Positions 8,978 through 61,468 of a stretch of 64,000 nt of DNA are shown here, one piece after another. The DNA is from a phage, in sequence record OZ413487.1. One strand, written 5' to 3'. The notes beneath the pieces are model-generated. The model was given only the letters and a program-made list of their open reading frames with translations. It had not been told where the DNA came from and searched no databases. The stretch's first letter is position 1. Every line of letters starts with the position of its first letter. Both the position numbers and the translations under genes were made by a program.

Positions 8978-9303
8978 CAGAAATCATCATTTCAACTGCA
9001 GGGTATGTGTTCCTGACAATCATTGCACTGACTATTTTGGTGACAGTGTATGGGTTTGTTATCCTTCCTATCCTTGAGACATTTAGTTTGTGTCGGTGTT
9101 GGAGAAAAGCTTACGGTCCACAACCATGGAAGGACTGGCCCCACCTGGTGCGCTTAGCGTTCTCTTATGCTTACGATCACTCCAGTAGTGCATGCATAAC
9201 CGGATACCACGCCCACAACTGGAGCTGGGAAGGGTTGAGGAAATGGAATGTTACAAAGACCATACCTCTGCGCATGTACAAACCTAAAAACAAAGACAAC
9301 TGA
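8974..9303 (+). CDS. membrane protein (N-terminal TM helix)
   Basis: 109 aa; AAGGGGA SD; hydrophobic N-terminal segment. Confidence 0.5.
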   Translation: MTEIIISTAGYVFLTIIALTILVTVYGFVILPILETFSLCRCWRKAYGPQPWKDWPHLVRLAFSYAYDHSSSACITGYHAHNWSWEGLRKWNVTKTIPLRMYKPKNKDN

Positions 9304-9611
9304 TACTTGAAAATTCTTGGCATATCAAGTATAAGGGGGATTTCTAAAATGGATTTCCTCCTTTTGATATTTCACCGGGCCGGATATTTTAAAATTCTTA
9401 GAAAATCAGAAAATGGATCGAAAACTAAAATGGATTTTTCAGAGTAGGCGCGACAAGCTGAATAACTCATCCTATCGTTTGCACCATATTCCAGGCCACC
9501 ATTATAGATTTCCCACACATGCTAACCTCCCTCTACTAGAACTTCCTCCACTTACCCTTGACCTTCTATGGTAACAATCTAACCGCTATCTTGAAGTTGC
9601 TGTGCAGCTTT

Positions 9612-9760
9612 CCAGGTACTCGATCTACTTTTCATTTCAGGGCTTGGATTTTCTGAAAATTTTTCTCGATAAATTTCTCAGTACTCGATCTGTTTTTCGT
9701 TTTCTGAATCGGATTTTCTGGAAATCGTTCCGGCTCTCGACCTGAAATTTTTGGGGACGA
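9612..9760. repeat. degenerate tandem repeats (about 70-bp unit x2) in non-coding region
   Basis: gtactcgatct, ggattttctg and tttttcgttttc motifs recur in the same order; aaaatggattt recurs 4x across 9340-9790. Confidence 0.5.
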
Positions 9761-9941
9761 AATCGATTTTTCGTTTTCAGAAATGGATTTTTAAAATTTC
9801 TATATGGGAATATTTTATGGGATACTGTTTTATAGGAAATTGTTACGGAGGGTAATTAGCGTGCTAATTAAATTTATTAAATGCGAGGAGTTCTCATTTA
9901 GAATTTTGAATGATAATCATTCTCGTTTGCAGAATAACGGG

Positions 9942-9961
9942 CAGGCCCGGTGATTGTCTCC
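9942..9961. repeat. GC-rich 20-mer, left copy of an exact inverted repeat pair
   Basis: caggcccggtgattgtctcc; exact reverse complement at 17381-17400; degenerate direct copy near 10077-10100. Confidence 0.6.
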
Positions 9962-10319
9962 CGGCCCCTACTGCCCCGGCTTGTTATTATAGTATCACAC
10001 AGGACAAAGAAAGCAAGGATTTTTTGCATAAATTTTTAAATGATAATGATAACCGTTCTCATTTTATGCAGCGCCCATCCCCGGTGGTTGTCTCCCCCGT
10101 CACCGGTGCCTGCCGTCCTTTCGATAGGTATATCGTGCCACCTGGCGGGGCCGCTGTCAACACTTTTCAAAAAATTTTTCTAACCTGATGCGCTAACCGC
10201 TGCAACCTGGCGGGGTCAGCCTGGCAGGACCTAACTGACCGGGTAGGAGAGAATGAAGGCTTGTAAACCTGGTGGGCCTATGCTACAGGATAGGTAACAA
10301 TTGAAGAGGAGGTACAAAA

Positions 10320-10487
10320 ATGAAAGGTAATATGATCCCCCTAGAAAATGTAGCTATTAATGACGCTGAGGCTATCGCCCTGGTTGAAAAGGCTATGGCG
10401 GGAGCGTTGGAACATAAAGAAGAGTACGAAAAATGGTGGTTAACCTGGCGGGGGCGGCAGGTGGATTCTATCATAAAAATAATTTAA
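10320..10487 (+). CDS. hypothetical small protein
   Basis: 55-aa ORF below the track cutoff; ATG after GAGGAGG SD; translated by hand to TAA. Confidence 0.4.
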   Translation: MKGNMIPLENVAINDAEAIALVEKAMAGALEHKEEYEKWWLTWRGRQVDSIIKII

Positions 10488-10495
10488 AATAGTCG

Positions 10496-10523
10496 TTGAC
10501 AACAAGGTTAATCATGGTATTAT
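10496..10523 (+). promoter_or_regulatory. sigma70-like promoter
   Basis: TTGACA-N16-TATTAT with upstream aaaatagtcgttgaca motif also present at 1899-1912. Confidence 0.5.
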
Positions 10524-10573
10524 TACCCTACAAGGTGAACAACACCGCACTAACCAGTAAAGAGGATAAATTT

Positions 10574-10771
10574 ATGAACGCATACGGGATCAAAGTACGT
10601 CGCAACACTCGCCAGGTGGTCACCAATCAAGTGATTTGCCGGGTGGATGTAACCATCAACAACGGGCAAGGCCTTTATAAATTTCGTCGCGGTCATAGCT
10701 ATACCCTGCAACAGCTTAATCGTTGCGCCCTGACAAAAGGTCAGATCAACCATTGGTTTAATAAAAAATAA
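10574..10771 (+). CDS. hypothetical protein
   Basis: 65 aa; ATG 10574 after AAGAGGA SD; track start 10496 lies in the -35 box. Confidence 0.5.
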   Translation: MNAYGIKVRRNTRQVVTNQVICRVDVTINNGQGLYKFRRGHSYTLQQLNRCALTKGQINHWFNKK

Positions 10772-10835
10772 GTATTGACATACAGTCCGACACCAAATAC
10801 ACTAAAAGCACAAAAGACACTAAGAGGATAAAATC

Positions 10836-11234
10836 ATGAAAACCACTACCTTTAATTTTGATAATGCAGACTTTTCTTTTTCTGATGTCAAGAACTGCCG
10901 CCGTGATCGTGGATTTTACAAGGCTTATAATCTGGTGGGCCTGGACGATGACAATAATTTGCACGAAGTAGCTGAGATCCGGTATTATGCCGCCGCCAGC
11001 GGTAACACTAACTACTGCGTTTTTTGGATACACGACAACAAGAACAATAAGTACGGTTATACTGGTGGCAAGGCTAGCGGTCACGGTTATGATAAAGCCA
11101 ACGCTGCACTTGAAAGCGCATTAAATGCCATGGGAATCACTGCCGACGGCTGGATCTATGAAGAAGAGTTTTTGGCGGCACTTGCTGCCCACCTGGGCTA
11201 TAAAAAGCACATTGTAACATGCGCCCACGAATAA
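10836..11234 (+). CDS. hypothetical protein
   Basis: 132 aa; AAGAGGA SD; TTGACA at 10775. Confidence 0.55.
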   Translation: MKTTTFNFDNADFSFSDVKNCRRDRGFYKAYNLVGLDDDNNLHEVAEIRYYAAASGNTNYCVFWIHDNKNNKYGYTGGKASGHGYDKANAALESALNAMGITADGWIYEEEFLAALAAHLGYKKHIVTCAHE

Positions 11235-11321
11235 AAAAAAAATTATTGACACGCTGCAAAATTCAAGTAAACTAGGCACAAAAGGCGGGAATGTTTCCCG
11301 CCAACACGAAGGAAAAAGATC

Positions 11322-11717
11322 ATGAATAAAAACGTACGCCGCATCATGAACGAACTGGCAAACGATGAAAAAATTATTGATATGCATTTGGTCAACATTT
11401 GCCGCCGTTGTGTAACATATAACAACCGCGCCGCAAAAGCGCGTGAGATGAACGCAAAAGGCACCTTAAAGCCCTTTCAGGTGGTTGTAAAATCTATGAC
11501 CAGTGCAGCAGGCCAGGCGCATGACCACAACAACGGGAGCACTAATATTGATCCATCTTACGTAATGAAACGGATCCGGACTTGCAAGAATAAAGAGCAG
11601 GTGTATAACGTCATAGATTGGCTGGACTCCCTGGGTGACGTGGTTTACAATAGGTTTTCTGCAGCTATTGAAATTCAGTTAGACAGGTTGGACGGGAAAG
11701 TACTGAAAACTTACTGA
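11322..11717 (+). CDS. hypothetical protein
   Basis: 131 aa; GAAGGAAA SD; TTGACA at 11246. Confidence 0.55.
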   Translation: MNKNVRRIMNELANDEKIIDMHLVNICRRCVTYNNRAAKAREMNAKGTLKPFQVVVKSMTSAAGQAHDHNNGSTNIDPSYVMKRIRTCKNKEQVYNVIDWLDSLGDVVYNRFSAAIEIQLDRLDGKVLKTY

Positions 11718-11764
11718 GTTTATTTTTAGATGGCCTTGACTCCAGGGCCATCAATAAAGTAAAC
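11717..11764 (+). repeat. intergenic stem-loop element, copy 1
   Basis: tttttagatggccttgactccagggccatcaataaagtaaac; 7-bp stem gatggcc/ggccatc with 10-nt loop; contains TTGACT..TAAACT. Confidence 0.6.
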
Positions 11765-11994
11765 TAATCCCAGTTAAGCGAAAAAGGAGGCTTGAAGATG
11801 AGCACTACACGCCAGCACACAAAGGTAACTATTATCGTTTGCATCATTGGTTATATCCTGGCGCAAATGTTGATGGGTAGCGCTAACGGTGTCGCAAAAT
11901 TTTTCTTAAACTTTTAATTGACAAGCTAACTTAGATCAGTATACTAAACACATAAACGGGAAAACTTCCCAGAACACCAAAAGGAGAAAACATT

Positions 11995-12345
11995 ATGAAT
12001 ACTTCCATCACTATGACCGCCGAAGAAAAAGCCCTGCAGATCGCCGCTCTGAAAAAACAGATTGCAGAACTTGAAGACAAGATCGACAATTTTGAAATCG
12101 ACGAAGACAAATACGACGATAAATATGATGAATGGTTGGACGAGATCTACGGCGAAATTATGATCGGAAACATTTCTTTTCTTCCGTCGCGTATCCTCAA
12201 GGAGCTAGATCCTATCGCTTACCGCTGCGGATTTAGCGACTACATCGACAGCCTGGATATTGAGGACGATGAAGAATACCAGGAATTGCAGACAGAGCTT
12301 GAAGAAGTGAAAGAAGAGCTTGCAGAACTGGAAGAAAACGAGTAA
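11995..12345 (+). CDS. highly acidic small protein
   Basis: 116 aa; AAAGGAGA SD; promoter 11917-11944; D/E-rich with heptad-like segments. Confidence 0.6.
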   Translation: MNTSITMTAEEKALQIAALKKQIAELEDKIDNFEIDEDKYDDKYDEWLDEIYGEIMIGNISFLPSRILKELDPIAYRCGFSDYIDSLDIEDDEEYQELQTELEEVKEELAELEENE

Positions 12346-12392
12346 GATTATTTTTAGATGGCCTTGACTCCAGGGCCATCAATAAAGTAAAC
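12346..12392 (+). repeat. intergenic stem-loop element, copy 2
   Basis: Identical to copy 1 over the hairpin and flanks. Confidence 0.6.
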
Positions 12393-12434
12393 TTTATACT
12401 GTTAACACTGAACTAATGCATAGGAGTTAAAACC

Positions 12435-12680
12435 ATGGCAGCACTAATCACCAAATATTATGCCCCTACCAACACCAAAAGCGCCCGTATCATGGTAAAA
12501 GGCTTCGGACGTAAAAAGGTTTACACTTGGGATTATTCCCTAGACATGGAAGACAACTACACCAACGCGATGACCGATTTTATTAATGAACTAAATAAGC
12601 AGATCTTAACCAATTATAAGGTGACCGACATCGCCTATGTTGGGGAAGGTGGGATCTGTTTTGTCGGTATTGTCAAATAA
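12435..12680 (+). CDS. hypothetical protein
   Basis: 81 aa; TAGGAG SD. Confidence 0.55.
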   Translation: MAALITKYYAPTNTKSARIMVKGFGRKKVYTWDYSLDMEDNYTNAMTDFINELNKQILTNYKVTDIAYVGEGGICFVGIVK

Positions 12681-12755
12681 GCTGTTTTTTCGGTGGTCCT
12701 GGTGGCAGGGCCATCTATAAAGATAGTTTATTAACACCATGAAAGGAGAAAGTAC

Positions 12756-13109
12756 ATGATCAGCGGGGCTAGTTTTATTATTGGCGCTATTGCTACAGCT
12801 TTAATTGTAAACAAGATCCAGGATAAAAAGGAAAGAGGAAGTACCGCCCTTGCAGAATATCCATTTTGGACATTCAACGATAACGAAGATTATATTATAA
12901 AGTATAAAAATAAAGAAGGTGACCAAGTAACACCGCGACCGATCCCGGCTTACAAGATGCAGGAAACACTATACCGCTTGGAGGCAGGGGGCGCAAAAAT
13001 TGTGGACTTTTGGGGATACGATCACACAGATCAGGAAGTTATAAAGCGCCGTATCCGGGCTATTCAGGCCAATATTGAAGTTAGCAAGGGGGGAATATAT
13101 GAAGATTAA
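12756..13109 (+). CDS. hypothetical protein (N-terminal hydrophobic helix)
   Basis: 117 aa; AAAGGAGA SD. Confidence 0.55.
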   Translation: MISGASFIIGAIATALIVNKIQDKKERGSTALAEYPFWTFNDNEDYIIKYKNKEGDQVTPRPIPAYKMQETLYRLEAGGAKIVDFWGYDHTDQEVIKRRIRAIQANIEVSKGGIYED

Positions 13110-13296
13110 TTTTGAGAAAATTGTAAAGCGATCTCATGATTCCGAAGAGCTGCCGGAACGCCGCCAGCGTAACAATAAACTGAATAAGCCAAAAAGATTT
13201 GGGAAGATCTGGCGGAATCATTATGATCGTAAATTGCCGGGCCTCCTTTTGGAACGTGAACGGCAGGCGGAACGATACCGCCACAAAGGCAACTAA
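13099..13296 (+). CDS. small basic protein
   Basis: 65 aa, R/K-rich; ATG 13099 after GGGGGG SD. Confidence 0.4.
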   Translation: MKINFEKIVKRSHDSEELPERRQRNNKLNKPKRFGKIWRNHYDRKLPGLLLERERQAERYRHKGN

Positions 13297-13303
13297 CAAC
13301 CAA

Positions 13304-13331
13304 CGCCCCGCCATCGTGCGGGGCTTTTTAT
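13304..13331 (+). terminator. rho-independent terminator
   Basis: cgccccgc-catcgt-gcggggc hairpin followed by TTTTTATTT. Confidence 0.6.
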
Positions 13332-13454
13332 TTCTACCCTACGAATAGCGCCCCTGGTTGGCCCCACAACGCCCTAAAAGCCCCCTACCCATGCAATCCC
13401 ATTTCTTAACCTGAAAACATCGTCAAAGGCTGTTTTAAAGCGTTAAAAATATTG

Positions 13455-13482
13455 TTGACATCTAAAATATTCTAGATATACT
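13455..13482 (+). promoter_or_regulatory. sigma70-like promoter
   Basis: TTGACA-N16-TATACT. Confidence 0.5.
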
Positions 13483-13517
13483 AATCACATCAAAGCGAGA
13501 AGTAAGGAGTAAACGCC

Positions 13518-13778
13518 ATGCGTAAATTAAAAAATTTTGATAAAGTTGATATTGTCCTGAATAATTTTTACTACTGCAATAACAAGGCCGTTTGGTGGCG
13601 TGATAGTTCCACCGATAAAGTCAAGGCGCGCTTTCTCCAGGGGCACTGGCAAGGCCGCCCAGTGATTAAAATCATGGGGCAATTGGTAGCGTTTAAAAAT
13701 TGCCGCCGTGTTGATGACGTTGAAGAGATTTTAAACATTTTGCGCCACAATAATTTAAAAAATAGTGTTGACAAGTAA
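13518..13778 (+). CDS. hypothetical protein
   Basis: 86 aa; AAGGAG SD. Confidence 0.55.
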   Translation: MRKLKNFDKVDIVLNNFYYCNNKAVWWRDSSTDKVKARFLQGHWQGRPVIKIMGQLVAFKNCRRVDDVEEILNILRHNNLKNSVDK

Positions 13779-13795
13779 ATCTCAATAAGTATAAT
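13768..13795 (+). promoter_or_regulatory. sigma70-like promoter
   Basis: TTGACA-N16-TATAAT preceded by aaaatagtgttgaca. Confidence 0.55.
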
Positions 13796-13852
13796 TAAAA
13801 ACACAGGCGGGAAAACTTCCCGCCACTAACAAAGAAAACAGGAGAAAATATC

Positions 13853-14476
13853 ATGACCACCGTTAACATTACCACAGGTTACAATTTATCTTTCGACGTG
13901 CTGACCGACGAACAAAAAGAAAAAGCCGTGGAAATGGTCCGCGAAAGAGAAGAACACAGCGGGGATAACTTTTTTGCAGAAAGTGTAATTGAGTACTATA
14001 AAGAATATGTTTTTCCAGAGTACGGCCTTGAAGATACCGATGTACATTGGTCAGGCTTTTGGTGCCAGGGTGACGGCGCGTCAATCAGTGCGGAAAACGT
14101 GGATTTAGAAAAATTCTTGCGTAAAGTCAAGTCTCTGACTAAATTCCGCTCAATTCGTCACTTGTTCGGCACAATGCACGATGGCGAGTTATCCGCAAGT
14201 GTTGAGCGTGATCCATATAGCCGCTATAGTCACGAAAACACTGTAAACGGATACATCGATACTACATGGCTAGACCTGACCACCAAACAAGAAAACAAAG
14301 TGGAAGATCTGGAAGAGCTGATCACCGAGACGGTACGGGAGTTATCCCGCAAGGTTTACGTAGACCTGGAGGAGGCCTATCTTGAACAATTCACCGCCGA
14401 AAACTTGATCGGCCTTATCGAGGCCAATGATTGGCGGTTTGATGTCGATGAACACGGTAAGATGACTTTTTCATAA
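13853..14476 (+). CDS. hypothetical protein
   Basis: 207 aa, largest ORF of the module; CAGGAGA SD. Confidence 0.6.
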   Translation: MTTVNITTGYNLSFDVLTDEQKEKAVEMVREREEHSGDNFFAESVIEYYKEYVFPEYGLEDTDVHWSGFWCQGDGASISAENVDLEKFLRKVKSLTKFRSIRHLFGTMHDGELSASVERDPYSRYSHENTVNGYIDTTWLDLTTKQENKVEDLEELITETVRELSRKVYVDLEEAYLEQFTAENLIGLIEANDWRFDVDEHGKMTFS

Positions 14477-14564
14477 ATAAAGTGTTGCAATAACCTAAAA
14501 ACCTGCTATATTAAAACTCAAGGGGCAAGACGTTTGCCCCACACAAAACAAAGAGGTAAACATT

Positions 14565-14945
14565 ATGAAAAACACTACTAAAGCTATTGACACCGTTATG
14601 TTTAACCTGGTTACATTCCGTGAAGATATGAAAGATCTTCCACGTGAAACAGTGTGCGATCACATTGAAAACTATCGCAAACTAATCAAAGAGTTGCCTT
14701 TAAAACGTGACCAGTATGCGGCTAACGCTATGCTTAACGCCATGATCAAAAAGATGATTCAGTGTGATTTAACTCTGGCCTATGATTATGCAGGTGGTCG
14801 TTTTGCAGTATACAATCAGCCCGTGCCTGGTATGAGCACCACCGAAGAATTGCACGCGTTAAATCTGAAACAAGATGTATGGGATAACATGCCCCGCGTG
14901 GTGGTGTGGGCAGAAAGCGGAAAGATTTACGGCGATAATTTTTAA
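14565..14945 (+). CDS. hypothetical protein
   Basis: 126 aa; AAGAGG SD; TTGCAA..TATATT promoter-like at 14485. Confidence 0.55.
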   Translation: MKNTTKAIDTVMFNLVTFREDMKDLPRETVCDHIENYRKLIKELPLKRDQYAANAMLNAMIKKMIQCDLTLAYDYAGGRFAVYNQPVPGMSTTEELHALNLKQDVWDNMPRVVVWAESGKIYGDNF

Positions 14946-15009
14946 TCAGGTAACAGGCGGCATATTTGCCGCCTTATTGTTAAACAGAACTGCAAAAGAG
15001 GTACATAGA

Positions 15010-15381
15010 ATGGAATTTATTATTTTGGCTGTAGTAGTTGCCTTGTTCAACGCCTGGATCGCTGGCAAGATAGGTAGATCCGCTTTTCTATGGTTTGTTA
15101 TATCTATTTTCCTGGGAGTGGTTGCAACTATTGTATTGGTTATCCTTGCAATTGTTGACAAGGGCGATAATAGAAAGGGTAAAGTGTTTTCCGACCTGTA
15201 TGACGCACAAACGTTTGTCAACGCCTATTATAGTGATCTTCCAGTCTCCCTACGCTGCAGCCTGGCACAACAGGTTTTTGATGAGGCTAAAACCAGAGAC
15301 CAAGCCCATGAGATATGTTTAACTGAAGCGGATCGCCTATTTGAGAGGAATAGAAAATATGTGGACCAGCCGTTTAAATAA
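15010..15381 (+). CDS. membrane protein (two TM helices)
   Basis: ATG 15010 after AAGAGG SD (track 14875); hydrophobic stretches. Confidence 0.5.
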   Translation: MEFIILAVVVALFNAWIAGKIGRSAFLWFVISIFLGVVATIVLVILAIVDKGDNRKGKVFSDLYDAQTFVNAYYSDLPVSLRCSLAQQVFDEAKTRDQAHEICLTEADRLFERNRKYVDQPFK

Positions 15382-15580
15382 CGCCACGTTAATTAATCCC
15401 TTTAGTGAAGATTTGAAGCCAGCCGCCTGGCGTGACGGATTCAATAACGAACGCTTTATTTTCAGGCCTGATCTTGAGGAATTTTATAACAATGGATCGA
15501 ACAACAGCGGAGATAATTTTTCTTGTGGTGTGCGTGGTGATAGGACTCCTGGGGGCCATTGTAAACCACGTCACTACTAA
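15359..15580 (+). CDS. hypothetical protein (doubtful)
   Basis: GAGAGGAA SD but N/G-rich low-complexity product; competing TM micro-ORF in another frame (15492..15617). Confidence 0.25.
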   Translation: MWTSRLNNATLINPFSEDLKPAAWRDGFNNERFIFRPDLEEFYNNGSNNSGDNFSCGVRGDRTPGGHCKPRHY

Positions 15581-15600
15581 CAGGAGGGAAGGGGGAGACG

Positions 15601-15720
15601 ATGACAACCAAAGATAAGCCATGCGCTGATAAGGTGCGCCGTGTTATGGTATGGCTTGAGATTATCGCCCTTGAAATATTGTTAGGCGTAGGGATGTACT
15701 TTATCGCTGTAAGTAACTAA
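15601..15720 (+). CDS. 39-aa hydrophobic peptide
   Basis: Below track cutoff; ATG after GGGGGAG SD; single TM-like segment; followed by terminator. Confidence 0.35.
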   Translation: MTTKDKPCADKVRRVMVWLEIIALEILLGVGMYFIAVSN

Positions 15721-15723
15721 GAG

Positions 15724-15752
15724 CGGCCCCCGATCATGGGGGCCTATCTTTT
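15724..15752 (+). terminator. rho-independent terminator
   Basis: ggccccc-gatcat-gggggcc hairpin then TATCTTTT. Confidence 0.6.
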
Positions 15753-15858
15753 AAAAAATTTTTCTTCCGGGGTGTTGCAATCCGGTCCGGAATGTGGATA
15801 ATAACAATCAACGGGGAGCTAATCCCCACCACCACAAAAACCAGAAAGGAGAAACAAA

Positions 15859-16059
15859 ATGAGCAACAATATCCGCGTTATTAACTTCAAAAAAGAAGAA
15901 AAAATTGCCGTGCTGATTGACGGTCAAGAAATCTTCAAGGGCGACTATGAAGATCATCAAACGGCGATTAGTATCACTCGCGTGATTGGTTATCATAATT
16001 TCTACCCCCAAGGCGCTGAGGCAGCAGTTAAACGAATCAAAGAGATTGTAGGCCTGTAA
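15859..16059 (+). CDS. hypothetical protein
   Basis: 66 aa; AAAGGAGA SD. Confidence 0.55.
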   Translation: MSNNIRVINFKKEEKIAVLIDGQEIFKGDYEDHQTAISITRVIGYHNFYPQGAEAAVKRIKEIVGL

Positions 16060-16060
16060 A

Positions 16061-16108
16061 ATTTATTTTTAGATGGCCTTGACTTCAGGGCCATCGATAA
16101 AGTAAATT
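16061..16108 (+). repeat. intergenic stem-loop element, copy 3
   Basis: Same 7-bp stem gatggcc/ggccatc; one loop and one flank substitution (compensation-free stem conservation). Confidence 0.55.
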
Positions 16109-19765: not shown

Positions 19766-20823
19766 AAGAATGAGAAGTATTCCCATTCCGTCCGCCTGGC
19801 AGCACTCCTGTAGGTCCTGCAAGGACTCTAGCTGAAAGCTAGACCCTTCGGGCCTCCCTGTAGGTCAGGTCAAAATCGTGGTAGAATTGGGCCTGTTCAG
19901 ATATTTCTGGCTGACTCTTCAGGTCTGTGTGGGAAAAGCCAACCTCTCCGGCGGGGCAGGGGGTCATGACGGGAAAATTGCAGGTCAATTAAAAAATTTA
20001 CGTGGTGTATGAAGCGCTCTTCAGGTAAGGCATGTATTATGGGATGAAACCCTCTTCAGGCAATGATATTTGTGGGTGTGATATTTGCTGGAAAGCCAGA
20101 TATGACGGGACTCCCGGCGGGGATGGGGTAGTACAGACAGGGAAAATATGAGAATGTAGTTGGGGAAATTGATCAGACAGGTAGAGTATGGAATATGTTA
20201 CAAGTATGTTAAATATGGAGGTTGAATATCTGTAGGATTTGTGTGTAAAATCAAAGACTTAAGGGGTGTTGTGGTATTTTCTATAAATAATTCAAGTTTA
20301 ATAGGCAATATTTGTCTCTATCCGCTTTGTGTGGTAAACAGATTCAGATTAGATTGGTTTACAAGTGTATACATAATATACAAATTAAAGATACAAGAAA
20401 CCCCCCTCCCCCTTCGGCTACCATTCACCTTTTCCTCTGACTGGTACTTAAACACTTATTCAGACTCTTCAGGTTATCACCCATATATCATATGGCAGTG
20501 ACTGGTGTCCTCCGGCCCCTCTTTCGTCACCCGTCCGCTTCGCCATGCTAATGCCATAGCCAATGGTTCGGTTGTTCACTCTGTTCACTCAGGTGTATCT
20601 CCATACCCCTTCAAACCGAAGAGAACAGAAAACCCGAATTACTCGGTAAAAGAAAAGAGAAGAACTTAATTTTATCAGGATAGGCAAGAATGTCAAGGCA
20701 TGACTGCTCACTAAACAAGCAAACAGTCATGTGTGGAAGGTAAGTGATTGTGGTGGTGGGAAATTTAGTTGAAAGATGTGTTATAGGTGCTCCCAGCACT
20801 TTAGCCGGGTAGCTAATTGTGTG

Positions 20824-21039
20824 TCAGTCCAGTGGTTCATCACCTACTTCACTGAAATCAATGTTCATGGTCTCCTCCCAACCATCAATCTCAGCACCAG
20901 AGTAGAGATCTTTAGGACTTACTCCCAAAGCATCAGCAACAGAGTCCATATTTAACACCTCTGGCAGGTATGATTCATCGAATTCAAGGTAAATCAGGCC
21001 ACGAGTGTTGTCAGCTCCACCAAATATTTCTATCTTCAT
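20824..21039 (-). CDS. hypothetical acidic protein
   Basis: Start trimmed to ATG 21039 after GAGGAG SD (track 21105). Confidence 0.5.
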   Translation of the reverse strand: MKIEIFGGADNTRGLIYLEFDESYLPEVLNMDSVADALGVSPKDLYSGAEIDGWEETMNIDFSEVGDEPLD

Positions 21040-21159: not shown

Positions 21160-21372
21160 TCATAGTCTACCACCCCTGAACTCTTCGTGCTCAGGCATAA
21201 TAGAGAACCAGATATCTACGATGTCTTCCCACGTCAGGTCATCAGCCTCAGGATCTACCTGGAGCGAAGATGAAGAATCTTCAGAATCGAAGTTTTCCTC
21301 TTGCACTGGCTCAGTCAAGGGACATATAGTCACTCCTTTGGATGTCTCTTCAGATGCATGTGTGTTTATCAT
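21160..21372 (-). CDS. hypothetical acidic protein
   Basis: 70 aa; start overlaps the stop of an upstream micro-ORF (ATGA). Confidence 0.4.
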   Translation of the reverse strand: MINTHASEETSKGVTICPLTEPVQEENFDSEDSSSSLQVDPEADDLTWEDIVDIWFSIMPEHEEFRGGRL

Positions 21373-23810: not shown

Positions 23811-24139
23811 TAGTCTTTCTCCAGGTTCAAAGGTCCTAAGATTTCATATGCCAGATTAGAAGTTACAAGAGGGTCTTCTGCGTCTTTAGTATTATACCAC
23901 CCGTGAATAACCAGAGTCCCACTTTGTTTCATGTCCAACTGTAACTCTTCTGCCGTTTCCTCATCCAGCTCCAAGATTTCCATAAGGTATTTGATGTTAG
24001 GGAGGTATGCAGCTGTTACAGTCCCCTCTACCAGACCTTCAGGCCAACCTACATCTGGATGACAAGTAGGAACCAGGTTGGTCAGCTTAATGGTGTACGC
24101 TTTTTCTGCACGAGCCTTCAGTAACGGGTCAATCTTCAT
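23810..24139 (-). CDS. hypothetical small acidic protein
   Basis: 109 aa; GAGGAGG SD; overlapping stop/start. Confidence 0.55.
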   Translation of the reverse strand: MKIDPLLKARAEKAYTIKLTNLVPTCHPDVGWPEGLVEGTVTAAYLPNIKYLMEILELDEETAEELQLDMKQSGTLVIHGWYNTKDAEDPLVTSNLAYEILGPLNLEKD

Positions 24140-24489
24140 TATTCGTCCTCCTCTTCGGTACCTGCTTCCAGTAATAAGTTAAGAATATCTTCTGCACAAG
24201 GCTCATAGAACTCTTGGCCTTCATTATCGATGATTTTATAGTCATCTCCACGAATAATCAGGGGATCACTCTCAAAATTATCGAGACCTTTAACAACGAC
24301 AACACGATCGATTGCCATCATTGTAAGAACTTTATCGACATCTTCCTCTGCTACACCATACTGCAGCAGAATGTCTTTGGTAGGAGGAACAGCATCCACC
24401 ACAACGCCGTTACCAAAACCTTCTGGAAGTTTAGCTAAAATATCTTCCGGAACCACATTCACATCAAAACCGGTAATTTCTACTTTCAT
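24139..24489 (-). CDS. hypothetical small acidic protein (family B)
   Basis: 116 aa; GAGGTG SD; MK(V/I)(E/K)... N-terminus and acidic C-terminus shared with 24490..24750 and 25914..26183. Confidence 0.55.
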   Translation of the reverse strand: MKVEITGFDVNVVPEDILAKLPEGFGNGVVVDAVPPTKDILLQYGVAEEDVDKVLTMMAIDRVVVVKGLDNFESDPLIIRGDDYKIIDNEGQEFYEPCAEDILNLLLEAGTEEEDE

Positions 24490-49337: not shown

Positions 49338-49918
49338 TAAGCATCTGCGAGATCGGCCTTACCTTGTACCAAATTGATCCCGTCTAGGAACCCAGGTTCA
49401 GATACTTCGCAGGCCTTAACCATCAACTTTTTATCCATTGTAACAGGTTTCTTCACAGTATGCTCTTTACCTGTCTTTTTGTCAAGCTTTTTCTTCTCCT
49501 CAAAAGCAAGTTCTTCAGGAAGATGACTACGAGCAAACTTTTTGGCAGTTGTTGGTGTCACTGTGTGGACCTTAAACAGGCCGTCATTTTCACAATCAGC
49601 TAAGGCATCCCAAAGCATAATTTCAAGACCGTAAAACAACCCAGCCAGTTCACGTGTGGCATCCCCGCGTGATCCAAAGGAAAGCCCTTCCATAACCACG
49701 GTGTCAACGTGATGCGTGTGGATATAATATCTGACCTGTTTGCAGATCCAGTCAATACGCTCAGCAGCTGTTGCAAAAGAAACCGTCCCTGGTTTCTTCT
49801 CTTTTGCAGATGAGCTTTGAGTTCGTAACACAACCTTATGAACAGGCTTTCCATCGTCCCATACAACGCAAGCTGTGTGTGTCAACGACTGGTCTATGGA
49901 TAATAGACGCTCTCTCAT
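49289..49918 (-). CDS. RuvC-like Holliday junction resolvase
   Basis: 209 aa; LSIDQSLTHTA (RuvC GIDPGS-like), VVMEGLSF, and ADLADAYWIG (RuvC ADAADALAIA-like). Confidence 0.55.
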   Translation of the reverse strand: MRERLLSIDQSLTHTACVVWDDGKPVHKVVLRTQSSSAKEKKPGTVSFATAAERIDWICKQVRYYIHTHHVDTVVMEGLSFGSRGDATRELAGLFYGLEIMLWDALADCENDGLFKVHTVTPTTAKKFARSHLPEELAFEEKKKLDKKTGKEHTVKKPVTMDKKLMVKACEVSEPGFLDGINLVQGKADLADAYWIGRAHLEGLSQSVK

Positions 49919-50250
49919 ACTTCCTCATCCTCCTCTCCTTCATCAGGAGCATAAGCCTTATCTTTGAACAAGACGAGAGAGCAAAGCTTAACATCTGTTT
50001 CCACACTGGTGAACATGCATAACCGCTCGCCCTCAATCAGTTCACAATCCTCTTTTAAAACAGCAGACCATACACGGTCATCTGCGTAATCATCAGTGTA
50101 CAGGATGTATGAAATGGTGTCATCTTCATACAACCGCCACATACCTGTGGCAACAACGAATGTATTTTTTGTTTTAAGTGTCCCTGTTGTATGATCATCC
50201 TCAAAAACAGCTTCCATAATTGCACTATCTACAGAATTTTTAGTCATCAA
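49915..50250 (-). CDS. hypothetical acidic protein
   Basis: 111 aa; TGGAGC SD. Confidence 0.45.
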   Translation of the reverse strand: MMTKNSVDSAIMEAVFEDDHTTGTLKTKNTFVVATGMWRLYEDDTISYILYTDDYADDRVWSAVLKEDCELIEGERLCMFTSVETDVKLCSLVLFKDKAYAPDEGEEDEEV

Positions 50251-60889: not shown

Positions 60890-61468
60890 ATGAGTCCACG
60901 CAAAGATGACCGTGAAAAGATTGCAAAACGTTATCAGAATGAAGAACAGATGGAGAAAACTTTCAAGTGGAAGCCAGGTTTCCAGCGTAATCATTCTAAC
61001 GCTCGTGATCGTAAGCATCCGGATAAGTGGTTAACACCGCCAAATGATGGCATGCAGGTTGGGGATGAGAAGGAGCTGTCACCTGGAAAAGATGGCAACT
61101 ACATTCGCACTAAGGAAGCAGGTCCAAAGGATGACAGCTATCTTGTAGATAAGGTTCTTGATGGTATTGATGTAGATGTTGACACTGCACGAAACCTTTT
61201 TCTTGGTTGGTATCGTACAGGGTTTTTCGACATCAAGGCTATTCGTCGTGTTTGTGATATTAAAAAGTCTGCATATGATGATGACTCTCTACATCGCACT
61301 CTGAGACAATGCTCAGAGAGATACGGTCATCCAGTTATCACTCTTGACGATATTAACGAAGTGATGTATCATGCAGAGGTTGTTGCAGGTAGATTCGGTG
61401 ATGCATATCTCGGTATTCTTTCTGCAAAAGATGAGGTAATGTTAAATAAAATTTACTATGAACGCTGA
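60890..61468 (+). CDS. hypothetical protein
   Basis: 192 aa; GAAGAGGAGG SD; preceded by about 350 nt GC-rich leader. Confidence 0.55.
   Translation: MSPRKDDREKIAKRYQNEEQMEKTFKWKPGFQRNHSNARDRKHPDKWLTPPNDGMQVGDEKELSPGKDGNYIRTKEAGPKDDSYLVDKVLDGIDVDVDTARNLFLGWYRTGFFDIKAIRRVCDIKKSAYDDDSLHRTLRQCSERYGHPVITLDDINEVMYHAEVVAGRFGDAYLGILSAKDEVMLNKIYYER

Follow-up and report, generated by a model that had tools for sequence, protein, structure and literature searches.

Is a small and extremely acidic phage protein that shares its size and charge with the DNA mimic Ocr also an inhibitor of bacterial defence? This question is raised by an open reading frame (ORF) at positions 11995-12345 (+) of a 64,000-nucleotide stretch of phage DNA from sequence record OZ413487.1 (hereafter the window), which runs from an ATG to the TAA at 12343-12345 and encodes a protein of 116 amino acids (aa). 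Ocr (T7 gp0.3) is a DNA-mimic inhibitor of type I restriction-modification (R-M) and BREX systems, and a first-pass annotation had nominated the 116-aa protein as a DNA-mimic anti-restriction factor by physicochemical analogy with it. The reading proposed here, which we consider possible and hold tentatively, is that of a host-strain-specific counter-defence factor acting by nucleic-acid mimicry. Taken separately, a host-specific counter-defence role is plausible, and the binding to a defence protein and the mimicry of nucleic acid are the parts of the proposal that we infer.

The window is part of the genome of a Vequintavirus (rV5-like) Escherichia coli phage: between 11000 and 13500 it shares 96.8% identity with phage HeinrichReichert (Bas58), and this stretch is covered by no fewer than 108 phage records. 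The extreme acidity claimed for the 116-aa protein was confirmed, with 37 residues (32%) being Asp or Glu (D/E) and ten being Lys or Arg (K/R), a net charge of −27 and a calculated isoelectric point (pI) of ~4.05, and no other of the 230 window ORFs with 50 aa or more is as acidic. The protein matches phrog_9294, a family of unassigned function, with an E-value of 7.9e-52 over residues 5-116. Judged by this match and by the large family retrieved in a profile search (see below), ORF 11995-12345 is a genuine conserved gene, and a chance ORF is ruled out. No second family copy (paralogue) was found in the window.

Reported Strain-Specific Requirement of the Orthologue bas54_0108

The orthologue in phage MaxBurger (Bas54), bas54_0108, is 99% identical to the 116-aa protein, from which it differs by one residue. 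In a HIDEN-SEQ transposon-sequencing preprint this gene was non-essential in E. coli K-12 BW25113, where 18 of 19 TA sites were hit, and was not depleted in isolate CFE311 (log2 fold change (log2FC) −0.52, not significant), while according to the Methods it was clearly depleted in the uropathogenic E. coli (UPEC) isolate CFE303, with insertions at the 3′ end being tolerated (bioRxiv 10.1101/2025.11.20.689424). Dispensability in K-12 combined with depletion in CFE303 is the behaviour expected of a counter-defence gene. Druantia III is the only system that was cloned from CFE303 in that preprint (bioRxiv 10.1101/2025.11.20.689424). No other paper mentioning bas54_0108 was found in the literature searched.

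When the 19 TA sites of bas54_0108 were mapped, those in the last 20% of the gene fell at codons 95, 98, 102 and 117 (stop), i.e., in the region of the C-terminal helix described in the next section. As insertions at the 3′ end were tolerated and these TA sites lie in the helix, the C-terminal helix seems dispensable, which agrees with the existence of relatives that consist of the head domain only.

Predicted Fold and Conservation of Charge

AlphaFold2, run with an alignment of 19 sequences, predicted the 116-aa protein with a predicted local distance difference test (pLDDT) score of 90.2, and placed helices at residues 9-31, 37-52, 64-71, 73-86 and 93-114 and a β-hairpin at 55-62. The heptad-like helical segments noticed in the first-pass annotation are borne out by helices 9-31 and 93-114, and by a 3-4 spacing of hydrophobic residues in 112 family members (positions 9/12/16/19/23/26/30/33 and 95/98/102/105/109/112). 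The head carries the motif YDEWLDE..G.I.IG..F.PSRILKELDPIAYRCGF.DYIDSL, and a model of the head on its own reached a pLDDT of 85.7. Approximately one quarter of the members found on viral contigs are head-only, measuring 55-80 aa and ending in a short acidic tail, and two further phrog families, phrog_9396 (E 4e-10) and phrog_37123 (E 2e-9), match the central head part alone. Given these natural head-only homologues and head-restricted matches, the head can be regarded as the minimal unit of the family.

Among the same 112 members, L68, D72 and A75 are kept in at least 90%, and L48, P73, Y76, Y95, D82, G79, Y44 and S65 in at least 80%, with P73, Y76 and G79 each being kept in 84-88%. The near-invariant L68, D72-P73, A75-Y76, G79 and S65 look like core and helix-capping positions and, since S65 and D72-P73 resemble helix caps, much of the conservation of residue identity is probably structural. 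Acidity is conserved as well: the 112 members, although diverse, contain on average 31% D/E, have net charges of −15 to −41 and all have a pI below 4.6, and in 19 alignment columns D or E is present in at least 70% of the members, with D and E replacing each other. This interchange, together with the structural look of the invariant residues, indicates that the surface conserves charge and not residue identity. The charge-based reading of the first-pass annotation is upheld as far as the conserved acidity is concerned, but the best-conserved residues form a specific folded head, and the C-terminal acidic helix appears dispensable. The predicted fold is apparently new and unrelated to those of Ocr and ArdA.

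Family and Distribution

None of the Pfam and NCBIfam models or PDB chains searched covers the acidic protein or its family, and weak hits to GvpG, HalX, Occludin and prefoldin in the Pfam, NCBIfam and PDB sequence searches were discarded as coiled-coil noise and composition artefacts. Its true family is the one comprising phrog_9294, phrog_9396, phrog_37123 and bas54_0108, from which it shows no difference in kind. A word-indexed search retrieved the Vequintavirus orthologues and relatives at 40-60% identity, while a profile search of 1.84 billion cluster representatives (clusters at 50% identity) retrieved 3,528 representatives at E≤1e-3 and 1,211 at E≤1e-10, most of them 100-135 aa long. 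In isolated phages, the family is present in Vequintavirus and in phages of Vibrio, Klebsiella, Proteus, Providencia, Pseudomonas, Stenotrophomonas, Acinetobacter, Clavibacter, Microbacterium and Gordonia.

Long members contain no Pfam domains, save for cyanophage Kyano_Gp96, to which one is fused, and a zinc-ribbon tail in one case, and domain fusions proved uninformative as a clue to function. Six distant relatives of 211-559 aa carry two tandem heads followed by unrelated segments, which are parted by recurring AETFGA/AESFxA motifs; some of these proteins end in a hydrophobic tail, and no Pfam domains were found in them. In layout they are reminiscent of a polyprotein or of an injected protein with several domains.

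The family is essentially phage-only. A tblastn search of the head against 72,556 plasmid records gave one match, CP057073.1, which is probably a Vequintavirus genome entered as a plasmid, and only eight matching contigs were found in metagenome-assembled genomes, among 185,579 species genomes. PLSDB classes CP057073.1 among the non-mobilizable E. coli plasmids; the record, at 137,565 bp as large as a Vequintavirus genome, encodes a head domain identical to that at window 12091-12270, and is probably a misfiled phage genome or a phage carried in culture. Seventeen records of the series MG0656xx (e.g., MG065635 and MG065662; 75-143 kb), labelled “Campylobacter phage”, match window 11000-13500 with approximately 92% nucleotide identity where listed; their host label looks doubtful and is perhaps due to contamination or mislabelling.

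The genomic context of the homologues varies. The T7-like Providencia phage PSTCR2 encodes a head-only homologue of 67 aa in the interval from the genome end to the RNA polymerase gene, directly 3′ of a gene for an S-adenosylmethionine (S-AdoMet) lyase (PF23780, E 3e-34), a T3-type anti-restriction function, and Proteus phage RS1pmA has a similar copy at 3 kb from its left end. Copies are modestly enriched towards contig ends: of the 52 on IMG/VR contigs of 30 kb or more, 14 have an end no farther than 3 kb away, compared to 5.8 expected (Kolmogorov-Smirnov p 0.036). No neighbour is conserved, as even the most frequent neighbour cluster is present in only eight of 78 viral loci, and neither ArdA nor Ocr was found within 4 kb of the family gene in 80 viral loci. 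Metagenomic contexts differ too, one being a siphovirus replication/terminase region and another a region rich in ankyrin repeats. Guilt by association failed as a route to function, with neighbourhoods that vary and share no partner; a varied context without a conserved neighbour is the pattern of a self-sufficient accessory gene. Two metagenome contigs carry a 151-aa homologue in a 15-kb region where approximately half of the genes encode ankyrin repeats, which is odd for a phage-like contig.

Proposed Mode of Action

In the mechanism that we propose, the gene of the acidic protein would be an accessory, stand-alone unit in a lytic rV5-like phage, with a promoter of its own that the host RNA polymerase uses. 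The product would be a small cytoplasmic protein in which two heptad helices form a hairpin that bears the compact head, and the entire surface of the protein is predicted to be densely and conservedly acidic. Working on its own by means of the acidic head, which would serve as a nucleic-acid decoy, the product may bind stoichiometrically to a defence protein, at the positively charged surface with which that protein binds nucleic acids. Its target could be a complex of the type I R-M or BREX-like kind; a helicase-nuclease system, of which Druantia III of CFE303 is an example, is another candidate. Nucleic-acid mimicry is favoured because the surface conserves charge and because the head is kept in phages of hosts from different phyla, as would be expected if the shape that it imitates is that of a universal ligand.

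The head could also inhibit a defence component through a specific protein-protein interface, for instance by blocking a sensor or effector, with no imitation of nucleic acid, in which case the acidity would help to keep the protein soluble or be a by-product of the coiled-coil stalk. We regard this as rather unlikely: a universal ligand fits better with a head that is kept in phages of enterobacteria, Vibrio, Pseudomonas and actinobacteria as well as in cyanophages, the near-invariant residues look structural and not interface-like, and a high net negative charge is found in every member, including the head-only ones.

Comparison with Ocr, ArdA and Other Inhibitors

The likeness to Ocr in size and charge, on which the first-pass annotation was built, is real. 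The protein is 116 aa long, compared to 117 aa for Ocr, and 32% acidic, compared to about 29% in Ocr; the Ocr-type traits of Asp/Glu density, a pI of about 4 and length were all found, with the acidity conserved family-wide. Both proteins are furthermore largely helical, have an acidic C-terminal tail, are restricted to phages and are encoded by a single gene behind a host-type promoter, and the T7-like PSTCR2 carries its head-only homologue in the early left-end region. The lack of sequence homology to Ocr, which the first-pass annotation had also stated, was reproduced by an hhalign comparison of the family profile with Ocr, whose sequence was confirmed to be that of 1S7Z (probability 0.15%), and by a phmmer search of Ocr against all window ORFs, which gave nothing at E≤10. 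Nor was the fold of Ocr, an elongated all-helical monomer that forms a banana-shaped dimer, recovered in the model of the acidic protein. The stand-alone unit, the host-type promoter and the lyase neighbour in PSTCR2 speak in favour of the first-pass interpretation, but there is no relation in sequence or fold with either Ocr or ArdA.

ArdA, sArdN and sArdC (PF07275) resemble the acidic family in being acidic, small and modular. Single ArdA domains of 88-114 aa are sufficient for anti-restriction (PMC12548430), a parallel to the head-only members described above. However, PF07275 matched neither the protein (E≤1) nor its 112 relatives (E≤0.001), hhalign against an ArdA sequence and against a 24-sequence ArdA profile gave probabilities of at most 0.2%, and no ArdA homologue was found in the window. 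A weak local resemblance of PSRILKELDPIAYRCG to the C-terminal ArdA motif PASLQNYIDYQAYGRD was dismissed as chance, with an hhalign E-value of 0.38 and the ArdA profile shifting the alignment to the N-domain (E 0.3). ArdA is moreover found in the leading regions of conjugative plasmids and transposons, whereas the acidic family has no genuine plasmid match. On these sequence comparisons, membership of the acidic protein in the Ocr or ArdA families is rejected.

T7 gp5.9, lambda Gam and T4 Arn, which are acidic, short and helical or coiled-coil, work by occupying DNA-binding sites. If the mimicry proposal is true, the acidic protein would share this general design principle with them; it differs in having no sequence match to their PDB chains at E≤10, and the targets RecBCD and McrBC exist in K-12, where bas54_0108 is dispensable. 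JSS1_004, an anti-Dnd factor, is a gp0.7 kinase homologue and was set aside as irrelevant.

Restriction Phenotypes

Could the acidic protein be a functional equivalent of Ocr that blocks type I R-M, and possibly BREX, complexes? Its size and charge equal those of Ocr, and the plating of related phages on type I systems points in the same direction. Vequintaviruses with 9-15 EcoKI sites have an efficiency of plating (EOP) of 0.1-0.75 on EcoKI and of about 1 on EcoCFT_I (PMC8594841). Bas54, with 11 EcoKI and four EcoCFT_I sites, has EOPs of 0.11-0.54 and 0.6-4.7, respectively, and lambda, with five EcoKI sites, has an EOP of 2.4e-5 on EcoKI in the same assay (PMC8594841). EcoKI sites are not avoided in the window (five versus 7.05 ± 2.8 expected), and the window contains no ArdA or Ocr homologue that could explain the escape. 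EcoAI/EcoCFT_I-type sites (GAGN7GTCA) occur twice in the 64 kb (20499-20512 and 61316-61329), compared to 7.3 ± 2.6 expected, and fewer than two sites were obtained in only ~1/100 shuffles, suggesting that this motif, unlike the EcoKI site, is mildly avoided. K-12 BW25113 is hsdR-deficient, and the dispensability of bas54_0108 in that strain is therefore uninformative on a role of this kind.

Bas60, Bas61 and Bas62, which are phi92-like and have 12-14 EcoKI sites (12 in Bas60), however, show EOPs of 0.72, 0.11 and 0.10 on EcoKI (PMC8594841). In Bas60, of which 150,000 of 150,425 bases were searched, no family member was found (the best match, of 13 bits, lies antisense inside another gene, compared to 105 bits for the window control), and neither were ArdA or Ocr. 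As Bas60 is insensitive to EcoKI yet lacks the family gene, type I escape in these large myoviruses is independent of that gene, and the escape of Bas54 now adds little to the case for an Ocr-like role. The S-AdoMet lyase with which the homologue coexists in PSTCR2 already neutralises type I systems, and the lack of homology to Ocr and ArdA points the same way. The authors of the BASEL study, who describe the Vequintavirinae as exceptionally susceptible to R-M, see seemingly no effective protection in these phages (PMC8594841). Functional equivalence to Ocr is, on balance, improbable.

With respect to the other restriction types, Bas54 has EOPs of about 5e-4 on EcoRI, at most 1e-6 on EcoRV and 1e-3 to 6e-3 on EcoP1, and forms no plaques on EcoCFT_II (PMC8594841); these plating data exclude type II and III restriction enzymes as targets. 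The nomination of the gene as an anti-defence candidate retains the reported depletion of the orthologue in CFE303, but can draw little on type I escape, which Bas60 shows without the gene.

Weighing the Counter-Defence Proposal

Several points weigh against a counter-defence factor that mimics nucleic acid. The depletion in CFE303 rests on one sentence in the Methods of the preprint, which pairs no defence system with bas54_0108 (bioRxiv 10.1101/2025.11.20.689424). In its supplementary file 9, Data S6 and S7 share the transit command line and the values, both representing K-12 versus CFE311, and the CFE303 numbers for bas54_0108 are consequently not checkable. The weak effect of EcoKI on Bas54 cannot be credited to the acidic-protein gene, given the EOP of 0.72 of Bas60 with its 12 sites. 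Furthermore, much of the charge resides in the C-terminal acidic helix, which appears to be dispensable, and mimicry demands a particular charge geometry, whereas the acidity considered here is read from the sequence.

A factor for host takeover or physiology outside defence, whose target would be a conserved part of the host cell (for instance RNA polymerase, nucleoid proteins or RecBCD-type nucleases) and whose loss would matter only under the physiological conditions of some strains, would suit a head conserved in phages of distant phyla, as this fits a universally conserved target, and a gene that sits among many small promoter-driven genes of unassigned function, and Ocr also binds RNA polymerase; its probability is nevertheless low, as loss of an activity on a core target should cost fitness generally, whereas bas54_0108 is dispensable in K-12 (18/19 TA sites), undepleted in CFE311 and depleted in one isolate only.

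Transcription Unit and Neighbouring Loci

The features of the locus are collected in Table 1. The first-pass annotation had placed the gene behind a strong promoter; the site at 11918-11945 does match the consensus at 11 of 12 positions, but it is undistinctive, since six plus-strand sites with at least 10/12 matches occur within the 7 kb from 9000 to 16000, where nearly every small gene carries its own near-consensus promoter. In total, 27 promoter-like sites were counted in this region, compared to 15 ± 3.9 expected, forming a dense near-consensus sigma-70 array, and each of the six strong plus-strand promoters lies 5′ of a small ORF of unassigned function, in promoter-gene-hairpin cassettes. 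In rV5, 33 such promoters have been reported, scattered over the whole genome (PMC3606486). From the type of its promoter, the acidic-protein gene would be expected to be expressed early.

Table 1. Positions of the features at the acidic-protein locus and of the repeated hairpin element in the window.
Feature	Position	Strand	Basis and remarks
Putative sigma-70-type promoter	TTGACA 11918-11923, 16-nt spacer, TATACT 11940-11945	+	Consensus scan, 11/12 matches
Putative ribosome-binding site AAGGAG	11981-11986	+	8 nt 5′ of the ATG; read from the sequence
Coding sequence of the 116-aa acidic protein	11995..12345	+	Orthologue of bas54_0108 and bas58_0109; phrog_9294 member
N-terminal heptad helix, residues 9-31	12019..12087	+	AlphaFold2 prediction; family-wide 3-4 hydrophobic periodicity
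Conserved head domain, residues ~33-92	12091..12270	+	Helix, β-hairpin and two helices; alignments, phrog matches, head-only model
C-terminal acidic heptad helix, residues 93-114	12271..12336	+	AlphaFold2 prediction; probably dispensable for the CFE303 phenotype
46-bp repeated hairpin element	12348..12393	+	Begins 2 nt past the stop codon of the acidic-protein gene
46-bp hairpin element, upstream copy	11720..11765	+	Closes the preceding gene 11322-11717; left border of the transcription unit region
46-bp hairpin element, third copy	16063-16108		Near a stop codon, like the other two copies

The 46-bp element (TTATTTTTAGATGGCCTTGACTCCAGGGCCATCAATAAAGTAAACT) is present in three copies in the window, compared to 0.03 expected, each starting within a few bases after the stop codon of a gene. 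Its RNA folds with −21.5 kcal/mol (z −5.1) into a 10-bp GC-rich hairpin between pairing A/U runs; there is no T-run downstream of the hairpin, and the element doubles as a weak promoter score (TTGACT-18-TAAACT). It is likely a transcript 3′ end or terminator-like element, and may be a terminator-like or RNA-processing element particular to these phages. With its own promoter and this element at its 3′ side, the acidic-protein gene would form a small transcription unit of its own.

The upstream neighbour at 11322-11717 (+) encodes a protein of 131 aa with 98% identity to bas54_0106 and no Pfam match. Although absent from the text of the preprint, bas54_0106 was strongly depleted in CFE311 (log2FC −3.18, adjusted p about 0; bioRxiv 10.1101/2025.11.20.689424 supplement), and the neighbour is a candidate for a second host-specific factor adjoining the acidic-protein gene. 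Other small acidic ORFs were found at 24139-24489 (−), 49915-50247 (−), 21160-21372 (−) and 20824-21039 (−), with net charges of −15 to −21 and pI values of about 4.05-4.1; a Pfam scan of 24139-24489 and 49915-50247 gave no match. These opposite-strand ORFs are candidates for alternative acidic decoy proteins of this phage.

Significance

If the target of the acidic protein is not a defence system, the outcome is only a well-delimited family of unknown function. If the counter-defence role is true, bas54_0108, a tractable gene of the BASEL collection, would give a function to thousands of dark-matter phage proteins across phyla and would represent a new fold for a small defence inhibitor, with a natural minimal unit of ~55-70 aa that would make an appealing portable tool in phage therapy or transformation. 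At its most far-reaching, and this we consider doubtful, a structurally novel, phage-only family of more than 3,500 clusters would have in this protein its first member with an indication of function, and the ~55-residue acidic head would be a new minimal nucleic-acid-mimic module that disarms widespread DNA-targeting defence (e.g., Druantia III or type I/BREX-like systems), and thereby a third independent invention of DNA mimicry beside Ocr and ArdA. As the family is very large and a tractable model phage is at hand, interest in it would be higher if the target is found.
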